A stretch of 59,198 nucleotides of DNA, counting the filler, from Nitrospinae bacterium RIFCSPLOWO2_12_FULL_45_22 (lineage in GTDB: Bacteria > 2-12-FULL-45-22): NCBI GenBank assembly GCA_001803565.1. It is 5 parts of 5 records of this genome, joined end to end, with 100 filler letters (N's around TTAATTAATTAA, not from the genome) between each part and the next. Parts side by side here need not be neighbours in the genome. Positions count along the whole stretch, not along the records: positions 25,728 to 38,122 come from MHDQ01000068.1; 4 more parts are not named here. One strand, 5' to 3'. Numbering within the stretch: position 1 is the stretch's first letter; every line of letters begins with the position of its first letter. Positions 25,628 to 30,854 of this stretch are shown one piece after another. A program made the position numbers and the translations under genes. The notes beneath the pieces are model-generated. The model was given only the letters and a program-made list of their open reading frames with translations, made no database searches and was not told where the DNA came from.

Positions 25628-25727
25628 NNNNNNNNNNNNNNNNNNNNNNNNNNNNNNNNNNNNNNNNNNNNTTAATTAATTAANNNNNNNNNNNNNNNNN
25701 NNNNNNNNNNNNNNNNNNNNNNNNNNN
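25628..25727. other. Artificial contig linker
   Basis: N-run, TTAATTAATTAA, N-run. Confidence 0.98.
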
Positions 25728-25738
25728 GACTAAAAGGG

Positions 25739-27334
25739 TCAGGGGCCATTTTGTTTCTTAAGGGATTCGGGCAGGAAGCGACTAAAGGCACCGTCCGAGC
25801 TTTTTTTTCGGAAATGCCTGAACTCGGGCTTTTGGGCAATAGTACGGGCATAAAGGTTCAAGCCCTTGATAAAGACGGTCTCCCATACCTGCCCACCGAG
25901 GACAAATATAGTCCCCGGGACGGCCTGCAGTCCGATCTCTCCTACTTCCCTGCCACTATCTCTATCTATCACCCGATACTCTCTGTGGGATGGTATATTG
26001 GAGTGGATAAGACCCCGCTCGGCCAGGTCCATAAGCTTAGTAGTAGCACAGAACCGCTCCGGGCGATAAGTGATATATTCCAGGTCTATGAGGTGGTTCA
26101 AGATAGCTTCTAGTTGGGAAGGATTAGCCAGGGGTCTGAGCAATGCCTCCAGGTTAGCCTTTTGTTCTCCCCTGGTATGGCAAAAGAGATAGGAAAATAT
26201 CTGCTGCACGATTACTGATAAATCTGGCTCATAATCTAATGGCTCGATCTCACCCAGCCGCGCCATATCGGCATAGAGCTGGAAGCAGGCCCGCTCACCT
26301 TCATCAGCAAAATAACCCAGGGCCTGCATGACTTCCTCGCGGCGACACCCACGGCCAATACGCTGCTGGAAAGAAGAGGGTGTAGGGGGTGGGTGATAAC
26401 AGGCGACACCGTCAAAATCCCCAATATCTATCCCGATCTCGAGGGTAGTAGTCGCTACACAGATACCCCAGCGCCATTCCCGTAAGACCTTCTCGGTGGT
26501 CTCCCGCACCTGTTTGGATAGGCTCCCATGATGGATAACGATCCGGTCTGCTGGCCAGAGGGCCTTTAGCTCTGTCCCCAGTCGCTCTACATCCCGTCTG
26601 CTATTGGCAAAGATAAGGACTTTATGCATCCCCTCTCGCCTAATGAATCCGATCAACTCCCCTAAGTCAGAAAATAGATGCAGATGAAAGGGTCTGGGCT
26701 CTCCTAATTTAATCGGCATAACGGGCTGGAAATAGCGTTGAGCCGTCTCTTCGGGGTTATATAGCGTAGCAGATAAGGCGGCATAATGCAGGGGCTCAGT
26801 AACATGCTCCCACCTTATCCGCTCCAGCAAGACCCGCAGTTGATCACCCCGGTAACTGGCATCTACCAGATGGATCTCATCCAGTATAATGGCTTTTAGG
26901 GTTTTCCAGATCTGAGGGTAACGACAGAGCATAGAGTCAAGGGACTCTGGTGTAGTAAAGAGCACTTGCTCGGGCTTTCTTACGGAGTATTCAGGCCGGT
27001 CACCCGTCCTCATGGCTGCCCTTAACCCACACCTCTCCAGGATATCTTTTAGCCGATAATAGATATTGTTCACTAAGGCCCGGGTAGGCGCTACATAGAG
27101 GATATTGAGCCCGGTATCTGTCCCGCTTCCTTCCAGCCTTTCGACCAGGGGGGCAAATGCCGCTTCTGTTTTTCCACTAGCTGCCGGAGAGGATATAATA
27201 ACGTTCTCACCCGCAAGGATACAGGGGATAGCAGCTAATTGTATTGGGTTGAGCCTGCCGAACCGGCTGAAGAAGGGGCTCCAGGTCTTCCTGAGCTTCT
27301 TTTTAAGGCTGAACAGTTCTGCCGTGGAATGCAT
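25739..27334 (-). CDS. Lhr-like DEAD/DEAH-box helicase (BrxHI/SngC-like), short form
   Basis: Q motif FGRLNPIQ, I SPAASGKT, Ia PTRAL, II DEIH, III SAT, HHGSLS, V TTTLEIGIDIG, VI QRIGRGCR. Confidence 0.9.
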   Translation of the reverse strand: MHSTAELFSLKKKLRKTWSPFFSRFGRLNPIQLAAIPCILAGENVIISSPAASGKTEAAFAPLVERLEGSGTDTGLNILYVAPTRALVNNIYYRLKDILERCGLRAAMRTGDRPEYSVRKPEQVLFTTPESLDSMLCRYPQIWKTLKAIILDEIHLVDASYRGDQLRVLLERIRWEHVTEPLHYAALSATLYNPEETAQRYFQPVMPIKLGEPRPFHLHLFSDLGELIGFIRREGMHKVLIFANSRRDVERLGTELKALWPADRIVIHHGSLSKQVRETTEKVLREWRWGICVATTTLEIGIDIGDFDGVACYHPPPTPSSFQQRIGRGCRREEVMQALGYFADEGERACFQLYADMARLGEIEPLDYEPDLSVIVQQIFSYLFCHTRGEQKANLEALLRPLANPSQLEAILNHLIDLEYITYRPERFCATTKLMDLAERGLIHSNIPSHREYRVIDRDSGREVGEIGLQAVPGTIFVLGGQVWETVFIKGLNLYARTIAQKPEFRHFRKKSSDGAFSRFLPESLKKQNGP

Positions 27335-28679
27335 GGGACAATAGGAGATCCGGGTCTTCTGACGGATAGAAGCGATGGAAGTCTAGACACTCTACCATGG
27401 CCTTGATAAACCTGCGAGTAGAATGATAACTGTTGGCCTTTACCAGTTCAAAGAGCCGCCTCCGGTACCCTTTGGGCATCTGGAGTTGATATACCCTTTC
27501 GTATAGCTCTATGAACCGATAAAAAAGATATTCCATCTGCTGTGCGGCTAGAGATTCTAATTCTATCTCGTAAATATTGTAGCCGCGAGGGATATTTAGC
27601 TTAAAGTCCGGGGTAAAGGCAAAGACAACTTTAAGAAAACTCGGCAACTGATATATGTAACGAATGGGTTGATGGCCAGAATATACCAGTCCGGTTTGTT
27701 TGCCATAGTAATAATAATCTCCCCGCACCACCCTCTCTTCTTCTAGCTCCGGCTCGTCATTAGCTACCATCGAGAGGGCATTAAAGAAATTAACTGCCCG
27801 AGCCCATTCATAGATATAGCGATAAGTGCGGGAGGTCTCTGCCTCATCAAACATCAGGAGCATACCCCGGAGCCCCAATTCTCTTACCGCCAGCATACTT
27901 ATCCCGCTAAGGATATGACAGTATATATTAGCAGCAGTAGTATGATCATAAAGGGCGCCTAGCTCCGAATAGTTTGTCTCCTGGCCTTCTATCCATTCCC
28001 ACATCTCCGGGGTATCCCTGGCTTCCCTAATCTTCTCTAAGACTTTTCCTAAGAACCGGTGGTCGGACAAGGGATTCGGCTGGGAGTTTTTGCTTACCAG
28101 GCTTAACATTTCGCGGAAGTTATAGTACTGGCCCTGGTAAGGGAACCTGAGGTTTCGGATCAGGTGGCGATACACCCTCTTAGGGAAGGCAGCCTGGGCA
28201 TCGCAAGGGTCTATCCCTACGAGGCTGACGGCATAATTTAGCTCAAATCCGTTATCATGCAGATACTCAATCAGGTGACTCTTACCACTGCCATATTCCC
28301 CCCGGATAACCATAGTACCGGAAGACTCATCCCGGAGCCATCCCTGAACTTTTTCTAGCTCGCGGGCCCGACCCACAGTCCATTCTCTTATTGCCTGGGC
28401 CGGGACAATCCCTAAGCGGAATGCCTCAATGACCGAGCGGGCTTCTTTGGGTATCTGGGGCTTAGGCCTTATCTCTGGTTTAAGCTGGTAGGTTCTACGC
28501 GGCTGCTTCGCTAGAAAGGTTGCAGTCCCTAAAAAGGTAAGGTAGGGCTTCTTTATCCAGAGCTGCAAAGAATTAGGGAATCGGACCAGGTACTCATGAC
28601 CATAATGCCGCTGGTCAATCACTACGCCATCACCAAATATGCCATGTCTCACCCGGGGATATTCAATTAACTCCACCAC
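27303..28679 (-). CDS. BrxD/DUF2791-like P-loop ATPase with an N-terminal Tudor-like (HxxFGxG) domain
   Basis: ARSVIEAFRLGIVP, Walker A GEYGSGKSH, Walker B LLMFDEAE; N-terminal RVRHGIFGDGVV. Confidence 0.8.
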   Translation of the reverse strand: MVELIEYPRVRHGIFGDGVVIDQRHYGHEYLVRFPNSLQLWIKKPYLTFLGTATFLAKQPRRTYQLKPEIRPKPQIPKEARSVIEAFRLGIVPAQAIREWTVGRARELEKVQGWLRDESSGTMVIRGEYGSGKSHLIEYLHDNGFELNYAVSLVGIDPCDAQAAFPKRVYRHLIRNLRFPYQGQYYNFREMLSLVSKNSQPNPLSDHRFLGKVLEKIREARDTPEMWEWIEGQETNYSELGALYDHTTAANIYCHILSGISMLAVRELGLRGMLLMFDEAETSRTYRYIYEWARAVNFFNALSMVANDEPELEEERVVRGDYYYYGKQTGLVYSGHQPIRYIYQLPSFLKVVFAFTPDFKLNIPRGYNIYEIELESLAAQQMEYLFYRFIELYERVYQLQMPKGYRRRLFELVKANSYHSTRRFIKAMVECLDFHRFYPSEDPDLLLSHAFHGRTVQP

Positions 28680-28681
28680 CT

Positions 28682-29932
28682 TTATCCCTCCAGGAGTTTT
28701 ATGCTTAGTTCTCTATTAAGGGTTTTCGTTGGCTCCTTCCTCAGCATATGGAAGGCCCTAATGGCTCCTTGAACAAAGAGTCTTATGTAACCTATATCAC
28801 CAAATCGGCGCTCATATGCCTCTTCGGCCAGGCGGCGAATGATATCACCGGCTATATCGCCAGCAAAAGAGTGTTCATAAGCTTCTTCATATATGCTCCT
28901 GAGCTTCTGGCCAATCTCCTCCAGCAAGGCTATAGGCTCACGATCCATATCTTCCAGGTTGATCTTTACCCCCGAGGGGTTATAGAAGTCAAATACACTG
29001 GATATGCGCTGTTTCAATGCCTCATATACATTGGAAGCGCCTTCAAAGATATTCTCATCTGGTATAGCATAAAAGATCATCACGTTCTTGAAAGAGGCAT
29101 GACCACATTCATCAATCAGCTCCCGGAGGTTGCTAAGCATCAGTTCGCGCTGTTTACTGCTGAGGCTAGGCACTTGCTCAGCCTCATCAAATAGGATCAC
29201 TAAGCCCGAATATCCTATATTCCTTACCCATTGAATAAGCGAACGGATCATAGAAAAGGCATTGCTGCGCTCAATGGGATGCAACAGGCCATACTCCTTA
29301 TGCAAATTACGTTCATAACCCTCTACCCGTAACCACTGGATGATATTACGAGAGTCTTCTTCCCGGTCCTGATGTAGGAAGAGGAAGGCCTGGGATATTG
29401 CCCGAGCAAAATTGACATTTTCGAGGTCCCTTTGGATAGCCTTGGCATAGTTAATAAGCTCCTGGTCCAGGGTCTCTCCCTGCAACCCCGCATCCCGGAA
29501 GCTCTCAGTCTGTCTCTCATACCAGTTTATAATAAAAGGCTCAATCCCCTTTTCTACCCCTTTCAAAAGCTCTTCGGCATCCATGGGATACATGAGATTA
29601 TTGACAATAGCCCGGTAGACCAATTCTAGCCGGTGGAATGGGGCCTCTTCCGGGCTCAAGTTGACATAGCTTACAACAAAGTTTTCGTTCCAGGCCAGCT
29701 CCCGGACATTATATAAAAAGTGGGTCTTGCCACCGCCATAAGCGCCAATTACCAGCTTGATGGTAGAGCCACCATCGTCTTTAATGAAGGTCTTTAAGTA
29801 TTCTTCGTCAATCAGGTTAAGATACTCCTCCAGTCCTACGGTAAAGTACTGAAATCCCCACTCGGGTGGTGTGCCAAAAGAGCCCACCGTCTCAATGATC
29901 CGCCGTGCGCTCTTTTTATCCAACTGATTCAT
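28682..29932 (-). CDS. BrxD/DUF2791-like P-loop ATPase
   Basis: ARRIIE...GTPP, Walker A GAYGGGKTHF, PFHRLELVY, IGYSGLVILFDEAE, LRELIDE. Confidence 0.85.
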   Translation of the reverse strand: MNQLDKKSARRIIETVGSFGTPPEWGFQYFTVGLEEYLNLIDEEYLKTFIKDDGGSTIKLVIGAYGGGKTHFLYNVRELAWNENFVVSYVNLSPEEAPFHRLELVYRAIVNNLMYPMDAEELLKGVEKGIEPFIINWYERQTESFRDAGLQGETLDQELINYAKAIQRDLENVNFARAISQAFLFLHQDREEDSRNIIQWLRVEGYERNLHKEYGLLHPIERSNAFSMIRSLIQWVRNIGYSGLVILFDEAEQVPSLSSKQRELMLSNLRELIDECGHASFKNVMIFYAIPDENIFEGASNVYEALKQRISSVFDFYNPSGVKINLEDMDREPIALLEEIGQKLRSIYEEAYEHSFAGDIAGDIIRRLAEEAYERRFGDIGYIRLFVQGAIRAFHMLRKEPTKTLNRELSIKLLEG

Positions 29933-29984
29933 ACAAACCTTCTCCTACATGCATCTATTCATGCTATCCGTGTTCTATGTCGTT

Positions 29985-30854
29985 CTATGTCGTGGCCCCC
30001 TGACGGAAGTATACCGAGGCAAAGTGGGTACCATCACCCCTTGGATTAGTCGGGATCCAAAGGTTATCCTCTTTCGTTTTGGTCTGTTCCCGGCTAGCTA
30101 CTGCCAACCGTAATTCGTATTGGCCGTATTCTCGCTGTTTTAAGCAATAGAGATCGTAGCTCAGTTGCGTGCGGCCATAACTCTTGAAATGCTCTCTGCG
30201 GGGATCAGTGAGAAAGTCCTTACCCTGCTTGAGCCAGGCTATCTCCCTGAGCCAATAAATAATAGAAACATTGGCCCCCAATTCCAACCCCTCCCTCTTC
30301 ATCAAACTACTATAAGCCTCAAACAGAAGTTTAAGGAAATCCCTCTCCTCCTTAAAGCTGGCATTATCCAGGTCGGTATAGGTTTTTATTACGGTATTTA
30401 CCAGCTCATCAGTTACGAGCTGGGCCCGGCCCAGCAGCTCTATCTTGGGACCATACCAAATTCTAACCTGGCCCTGGGATAATAAAAACTCCAGGGTCAA
30501 CACTCCTACCCTTAACTCGGGTAAATTACCTTCTATCTTCCAGCCTTTCTCCTCAAACCTGCGCTCCAGCTCTGCCCCTAAATAAGCCTTGAGCTTATGC
30601 TTAGGATGCTCCAGTAATTTTTTCCTCTCTTCCACAAATTCCTTTACATTTTTCAAGTTCTCGTGGAGCTCCTCCAGCTCCTTTATCTGGCCTAGCCTTT
30701 GCTCCACCTTCTTTAGTCTCTCCTCTATCTGATAGGCATTTTTATCTATATCTTTTTCTAAATACTCTCCTTCCTTGAGATACTTCTCTATCTCCCCTAG
30801 TATCTGCCTACTCTGATTTATCTTTTTACGCAATTCCTGATAAGTATTTGCCAT
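29985..30854 (-). CDS. Hypothetical protein with an N-terminal coiled coil; first gene of the ATPase-helicase operon
   Basis: E/K/L-rich heptads in roughly the first 100 aa, GGAGG RBS, co-oriented with the ATPases. Confidence 0.8.
   Translation of the reverse strand: MANTYQELRKKINQSRQILGEIEKYLKEGEYLEKDIDKNAYQIEERLKKVEQRLGQIKELEELHENLKNVKEFVEERKKLLEHPKHKLKAYLGAELERRFEEKGWKIEGNLPELRVGVLTLEFLLSQGQVRIWYGPKIELLGRAQLVTDELVNTVIKTYTDLDNASFKEERDFLKLLFEAYSSLMKREGLELGANVSIIYWLREIAWLKQGKDFLTDPRREHFKSYGRTQLSYDLYCLKQREYGQYELRLAVASREQTKTKEDNLWIPTNPRGDGTHFASVYFRQGATT

Follow-up and report, generated by a model that had tools for sequence, protein, structure and literature searches.

Four adjoining genes on the minus strand of a 59,198-nucleotide stretch of DNA (the window), joined from five parts of the genome of Nitrospinae bacterium RIFCSPLOWO2_12_FULL_45_22 (GCA_001803565.1; G000), form a real, widespread and unnamed ATPase-helicase system. 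The genes are located between positions 25739 and 30854 and are designated gene A, ATPase B, ATPase C and helicase D. The cassette is neither Shango (it has no TerB) nor bacteriophage exclusion (BREX; no PglZ was found in the 85%-complete genome). Several deep-branching bacterial lineages retain the genes in the manner of housekeeping genes. We give about even chances to the interpretation that it is a horizontally spread and repeatedly domesticated helicase loader for genome maintenance. No published description of such a four-gene system was found in the literature searched; the supplement of PMC12839542 may list such neighborhoods.

Composition and conservation of the cassette

The four proteins were assigned to families with PADLOC, Pfam and NCBIfam models. 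Gene A (29985-30854, 289 amino acids) encodes a coiled-coil hairpin, an alpha/beta domain and a winged helix, and its family has no name. ATPase B (28682-29932, 416 amino acids) is a DUF2791/BrxD-like AAA+ protein, and ATPase C (27303-28679, 458 amino acids) is a divergent DUF2791 paralogue; both match PF10923 (BrxC_BrxD), with E=1.6e-52 for B and E=3.9e-20 for C. Residues 1 to about 50 of C (28530-28679, minus strand) form a Tudor domain of the PcrA/UvrD type by profile homology. Helicase D (25739-27334, 531 amino acids) is an Lhr/BrxHI/SngC-like superfamily 2 (SF2) helicase with the Pfam DEAD and Helicase_C domains. A and B are separated by 52 base pairs and B and C by 2 base pairs, and C and D overlap by 32 base pairs. 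The co-orientation and spacing are exactly those given in the preliminary description of this locus, whose calls of two ATPases and a helicase also held; it had noted neither the Tudor domain of C nor A's winged helix.

GTDB was scanned with B and the best 80 of 396 stretches were used, so this set is biased toward close relatives. The counts below cover 85 non-duplicate loci (7 duplicates removed). B and C adjoin at 84 of these loci, A and B at 76, and C and D at 59. All four genes stand in the order A-B-C-D at 58, and several of the gaps are contig ends. The four-gene order is conserved. The pairwise identities of the four genes are correlated (Spearman 0.73-0.81, 56 complete sets), as expected if the four genes travel together. 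The titles of the loci include Myxococcota, Acidobacteriota, WOR-3, Desulfofervidaceae, Chloroflexota, Methanoperedens and Methanomassiliicoccales.

Two unequal ATPases

B scored 150 bits with the PADLOC model of BrxD and 104 bits with that of SngB; the values for C were 54 and 37 bits. With the NCBIfam model of BrxD, B reached 152 bits against a cut-off of 350. The two ATPases are 25% identical over 253 columns, and hhalign paired them at 99.8% over 345 columns, in agreement with the earlier view of two divergent paralogues. The Walker A and Walker B motifs are intact in both proteins (GAYGGGKT and FDEAE in B; GEYGSGKS and FDEAE in C), as had been described. Conserved residues in B are K69 (86/86), D249 (86/86), E250 (85/86), R270 (86/86), R309 (85/86) and R384 (83/83), and those in C are K133 (85/85), D278 and E279 (84/84 each) and R422 (82/82). 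No conserved arginine was found in the arginine-finger column of C, between residues 358 and 370. From general knowledge of AAA+ proteins and from PMC12839542, R309 of B is a putative arginine finger, and R384 of B and R422 of C are putative sensor-II residues. An arginine finger in B and none in C fits an asymmetric B/C oligomer. Together with the adjacency of the two genes, this suggests that B and C form an asymmetric hetero-oligomer and makes the hetero-oligomeric ATPase proposed earlier plausible. No solved structure related to B by sequence was found at E<=0.01, and no relative of B was found on viral contigs.

BrxD is described as an ATPase of the ORC/Cdc6 type of AAA+ proteins that lacks a DNA-binding domain, and it is proposed to load BrxHI (PMC12839542). 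The cassette resembles ORC/Cdc6 loaders in the AAA+ clade to which BrxD belongs and in having paralogous subunits with unequal arginine fingers. It differs from them in that the winged helix is carried by a separate protein, and the partner is an SF2 helicase rather than a ring helicase.

The Tudor domain of ATPase C

A profile of 64 C Tudor sequences was compared with the PDB sequences. The matches were the UvrD tail (7egs_B, E=1e-6; 6yi2_A, 1.2e-6; 7egt_B, 5.9e-4) and PcrA (5dma_A, 1.3e-3). PF21196 matched 15 of the 64 sequences at E<=0.1, with a best value of 6.6e-5; the Tudor of the window's C, searched alone against Pfam, gave no match. Most C proteins (75 of 84) carry the domain. In PcrA/UvrD the Tudor binds a hairpin motif found in RpoB of RNA polymerase and in UvrB (PMC8318588; PMC5397179), and the residues that bind RNA polymerase are H681, W684, K712 and L714 (PMC5397179).

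The corresponding residues of C were mapped by inference from the profile alignment. Among 77 C proteins, the histidine is kept in 76, the position three residues later is aromatic (F, Y or W) in 51 and leucine in 19, and the next hydrophobic site is V, L or I in 73. In sequence, the N-terminal 50 residues of C are homologous to the PcrA/UvrD Tudor (PF21196; PDB 7EGS, 5DMA) and retain its histidine and the following aromatic or hydrophobic position. However, the key lysine position is variable in C, Arg24 is specific to the C family, and the domain is N-terminal on an AAA+ ATPase, whereas in PcrA/UvrD it is C-terminal on a superfamily 1 (SF1) helicase. The Tudor is missing from C at L021, L030, L080, L084, L085 and L089, apparently through more than one loss, and D is kept in 4 of these 6 genomes.

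A hairpin of the form [DNE]-x-x-[TS]-G is present in 41 of 58 D sequences, and the strict helicase-interaction motif is present in one. The idea that the Tudor tethers D is unsupported; D is kept in 4 of 7 Tudor-less systems checked, and no covariation of D with the Tudor was seen by eye.

Gene A and helicase D

The A family contains 564 representatives at 50% identity (E<=0.001). Pfam returned only coiled-coil noise for A (E>=0.024), and among 138 family members neither a common Pfam family nor a TerB family was found. SngA was not detected in 69 C-terminal parts of the family. The rows of a whole-protein VIA search with A were taken up by coiled coils, and Foldseek gave no match at E<=0.001 with the whole protein or its C-terminal part. 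In the AlphaFold2 model (pLDDT 96), the coiled-coil hairpin covers residues 5-102, the alpha/beta domain about 91-166 and the winged helix about 168-289. The middle domain gave generic structural rows with Z up to 7.8. The best structural rows of the winged helix are ORC/Cdc6 entries, namely 8s0e_G (Z 7.0, root-mean-square deviation 3.6, 80 residues), 7jpo_A (Z 6.4), 7jgr_G (Z 5.9) and 1fnn_B (Z 5.3); these scores are middling and tied with those of unrelated winged helices, so the match is a lead only and homology is not implied.

D scored 230 bits with SngC and 229.5 bits with BrxHI. Its alignment with long forms indicates a natural short form, in which an internal deletion removes most of the C-terminal domain and the terminal GAFSRFLP motif is kept. 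This also rules out that D was cut by the contig end. Among 61 aligned D proteins, 37 have 480-560 amino acids and 22 have more than 620. Lhr functions in cross-link repair (PMC9841417). In a divergent copy of the cassette (L014:5798-10696), a 1632-amino-acid helicase consists of an Lhr-like core fused to an SF1 part (AAA_11/AAA_12), with a weak Cas4-like match between them.

Comparison with Shango and type 2 BREX

Shango consists of three genes, for a TerB-like SngA, an ATPase SngB and a helicase SngC, and gives modest protection (10.1101/2022.11.11.516204; 10.1101/2022.05.11.491447); the gene names and TerB also appear in PMC11973324 and 10.1101/2025.09.30.679545. The cassette is similar in having a stand-alone accessory gene, a DUF2791 ATPase and a helicase in the same order, with the SngC-like helicase last and without a methylase or nuclease. 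However, its lead gene encodes a 289-amino-acid coiled-coil/winged-helix protein, for which no SngA or BREX model matched at E<=0.1. This bears out the earlier statement that the lead gene has no TerB or Pgl signature. The cassette also has four genes with two adjoining ATPases, and B scores higher with BrxD than with SngB. Shango is reported from defense hotspots, whereas the cassette is mostly located in housekeeping contexts.

In type 2 BREX, BrxD and BrxHI are tightly paired (PMC12839542). In the cassette, too, the gene of a DUF2791 AAA+ ATPase immediately precedes that of an Lhr-like SF2 helicase. It differs from the dyad in having two ATPase paralogues, one of them Tudor-bearing, together with gene A, and the helicase of the window lacks most of the C-terminal domain. 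No PglW, PglX, PglZ or BrxC was found upstream on the contig, which ends at 25728. PglZ had no match in G000 (85% complete), in a genome-wide search that covered PglZ and not PglX, BrxC or PglW. No BREX core gene was found among the scanned neighbors of the homologous loci. A PglZ-domain match was present in all 5 other cassette genomes tested. Four of these proteins were read; they have 500-520 amino acids and an N-terminal receiver motif, and lie behind a sensor-kinase-like gene far from the cassette. These receiver and PglZ-domain regulators (L153-L156, in WOR-3 and related genomes) are presumably of the PorX type. By the PADLOC and NCBIfam scores and the lack of TerB and PglZ matches, the cassette is a distinct system that fits neither the Shango nor the BREX models, as first proposed.

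Lineage fixation and gene neighborhoods

Fixation was examined in the phylum to which G443 belongs (242 genomes); G443 is the genome of L075 and is titled WOR-3. A was found in 116 and C in 114 of these genomes. Both were present in 111, A only in 5, C only in 3 and neither in 123, and nearly always as a single copy. Over the consecutive handles G564-G660, 96 of 97 genomes have A, C or both, where the tracking of kinship by handle order is an inference. Small families carry the cassette in 3/3, 2/2 and 3/4 genomes, with 0/3 in a sister family. Near-fixed, single-copy presence in a large lineage favors upkeep over defense.

The genes are also retained together when they are apart. At the loci with B-C and no adjoining A, A was found elsewhere in 5 of 5 genomes tested (5 of 7 such loci). 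Where D does not adjoin and room is available, a D orthologue (>500 bits) was found elsewhere in 12 of 19 draft genomes. Away from the other genes, A lies within a metabolic operon and D next to a gene resembling that of DNA polymerase III alpha, as named from reading of the sequence. The genes are thus often split into housekeeping operons yet co-retained, which again favors upkeep.

Neighbors were taken as up to three open reading frames on each side, and many contigs are short. A total of 293 distinct neighboring frames were scanned (117 with Pfam, 106 and 88 with PADLOC, 18 in both), with one representative per similarity cluster and some omitted. A clear defense gene is present at only 10 of 85 loci (L013, L015, L024, L025, L027, L032, L034, L042, L058 and L082), a count for which no background rate was computed. 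Ambiguous neighbors (toxin-antitoxin pairs, Cas4-like nucleases and PDC-S47) are present at 6 more loci. In a quick tree of B, the defense loci fall 7/28 in a mixed-phylum clade, 1/29 in the window's clade and 0/22 in the long-helicase clades, with 2 on outlying branches. Those of the mixed clade include type I and II restriction-modification, Old, a Mokosh/Hhe-like helicase with Mrr_N, CARF, RmrA-like and SNF2 genes. Seven Acidobacteriota loci have common flanking genes.

The guanine-cytosine content (GC) of the cassette is 0.455-0.518. Its GC at third codon positions is 0.53-0.56, with 0.52-0.53 in the two upstream genes and a genome mean of 0.477. An AT-rich island is ruled out, as these values resemble those of the neighbors; the window's copy is host-like in composition and therefore no fresh island.

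Proposed function and alternatives

In the helicase-loader interpretation, B and C would assemble into an asymmetric, ORC/Cdc6-type hetero-oligomer of AAA+ subunits. B would provide the arginine finger, and C would bind ATP and be unable to activate its neighbor, so the assembly is proposed to be open-ended. The DNA-binding domain missing from BrxD-type ATPases would come in trans from the winged helix of A, and A may dimerize via its coiled coil. The C Tudor would dock the assembly on a partner protein, for which UvrD/PcrA offer the RNA polymerase beta subunit or UvrB as precedent. The assembly would then load or activate the Lhr-like helicase D, which could clear stalled or damaged nucleic-acid structures such as stalled transcription, R-loops and cross-links.

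A more specific version is unlikely in our estimation. It holds that a split bacterial ORC/Cdc6-like loader brings an Lhr-type helicase to stalled transcription or excision repair via a PcrA/UvrD-derived Tudor, and that the host PcrA lost its own Tudor where the cassette was fixed and took over the docking. A contrast in PcrA counts in favor of the helicase loader in general: in the WOR-3-titled phylum, PF21196 was detected in 33 of 242 genomes, 32 of the 123 cassette-free and 1 of the 119 cassette-bearing. PcrA ends after the helicase core in the cassette-bearing G443 (642 amino acids) and G597 (657), whereas it retains the Tudor in the cassette-free G542 (701) and G465 (713). The UvrD-family proteins read from genomes of the Desulfofervidaceae clade have no Tudor either, and a Tudor profile search of G000 found only C. 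RpoB of G000 (L100, C207) carries a perfect helicase-interaction motif, IDEETGELL, at residue 346. A second similar hairpin lies upstream in this RpoB, within a lineage insert. The RpoB motif is present in G465 and nearly so in G401. If the split-loader version is true, the BrxD-BrxHI and Shango defense modules would be offshoots of a genome-maintenance machine.

A number of observations weigh against these interpretations. Among 50 cassette genomes drawn from many phyla, 21-23 also have a PcrA with a Tudor; displacement is therefore not general, and the idea that the cassette always replaces the Tudor of PcrA is ruled out. Few independent lineages underlie the WOR-3 contrast in PcrA, and many of its Tudor matches are near the threshold. 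In G443 and G636, the two cassette-bearing WOR-3 genomes read, RpoB has a degenerate hairpin motif, so the C Tudor probably does not bind RpoB there. A joint loss of the PcrA Tudor and of this motif, with no connection to the cassette, would account for WOR-3 just as well. At the site of the lysine that is important for RNA polymerase binding, 26 of 77 C proteins have Arg and 27 have Leu, and the archaeal copies, which nest within the bacterial ones, retain the C Tudor. Of 400 sampled genomes, just 11 gave a full-length match to A (13 other hits were confined to the coiled coil and were excluded). Horizontal movement of the cassette is evident: between the window's genome and certain others, B shares 81-83% identity while the RpoB part shares only 67-68%, and one genome (G310) has two complete or near-complete cassettes, L006 and L007, in different clades of the B tree. 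The tied Z scores of the winged helix of A and the absent background rate of the defense count also belong here. Finally, by sequence comparison the closest characterized kin of B and D are defense components.

The last point leads to the main alternative, which we regard as quite possible, and somewhat less probable than the helicase loader. The cassette would be a stand-alone anti-phage or anti-plasmid system and a third sibling of Shango and the BrxD-BrxHI pair of type 2 BREX. A and the Tudor would detect phage DNA or an RNA polymerase that has been hijacked, B/C would license D against phage replication or transcription, and lineage fixation would reflect a cheap, always-useful defense. 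The best scores of B (BrxD/SngB) and of D (SngC/BrxHI) are consistent with this, as are the horizontal transfer across phyla and into archaea and the defense neighbors of the mixed-phylum clade. Shango is likewise an ATPase and a helicase with one accessory protein, and its protection is modest (10.1101/2022.11.11.516204). However, near-fixed and single-copy presence, co-retention of genes divided among housekeeping operons, the scarcity of defense neighbors in the window's and long-helicase clades, and host-like composition argue otherwise. In addition, A was not found in plasmid and phage collections, and no nuclease or other effector domain was found in the four proteins with Pfam and PADLOC. 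Defense is not the best-supported role of the cassette. The preliminary description had inferred an anti-phage or DNA-surveillance system; anti-phage function does not stand as the principal reading, and DNA surveillance fits better.

It is improbable, though conceivable, that both roles are combined in one surveillance machine for aberrant DNA or stalled RNA polymerase, acting as mobile defense in one clade and in repair where it is fixed. The defense neighbors do cluster in one clade of the B tree, and the other clades are in housekeeping contexts. However, all clades have the same domains and motifs, no feature separating a defense form from a repair form was found, and the seven fixed Acidobacteriota loci fall within the mixed clade.

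It is very improbable that the cassette is an accessory of type 2 BREX that became detached and acts in trans with pgl genes located elsewhere or past the contig end: the tight BrxD-BrxHI dyad (PMC12839542), the break of the locus at 25728 and the PglZ-domain matches in other cassette genomes would suit it, but the 85%-complete G000 gave no PglZ match, the PglZ-domain proteins read are distant receiver-domain regulators, no scanned neighbor is a BREX core gene, and B falls far short of the BrxD cut-off.

The role of the BrxD-type ATPase and Lhr-type helicase in type 2 BREX and Shango is not shown in the papers cited. The cassette presents this ATPase-helicase pair in isolated form, together with a recognizable docking domain and a putative partner for DNA binding, and in one large uncultured lineage it looks like a core gene set. 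The four proteins are suited to in vitro study of helicase loading, ATPase asymmetry and the ligand of the Tudor. The cassette also warns that BrxD/SngC-like matches are not always defense genes.

Surroundings of the locus and additional observations

Genes for a LysR regulator and a radical SAM protein lie upstream of the cassette (Pfam). The stop codon of D is 11 base pairs from the contig end, and the run of N ends at 25727. Contigs of two runs, X1 and X2, extend 6.6 and 7.4 kb beyond this end, and X1 may be the source of this DNA. For the DNA beyond 25728, a metagenome scan gave only a contig that stops at the same place. No second DUF2791 locus was found in this 85%-complete genome, and a promoter and terminator scan was at chance level. 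The flagellar-type genes left of 25628 belong to another contig (C67), separated by the N spacer at 25628-25727, and are not neighbors of the cassette.

A very divergent A-B-C trio without the helicase occupies L015:3981-9368, and after it come a type II methylase gene and a short gene resembling a nuclease; D was not found in the genome of L015. Two Myxococcales loci (L020:7216-8709 and L072:628-1578) carry a gene for a Cas4-like nuclease upstream of A and in divergent orientation.

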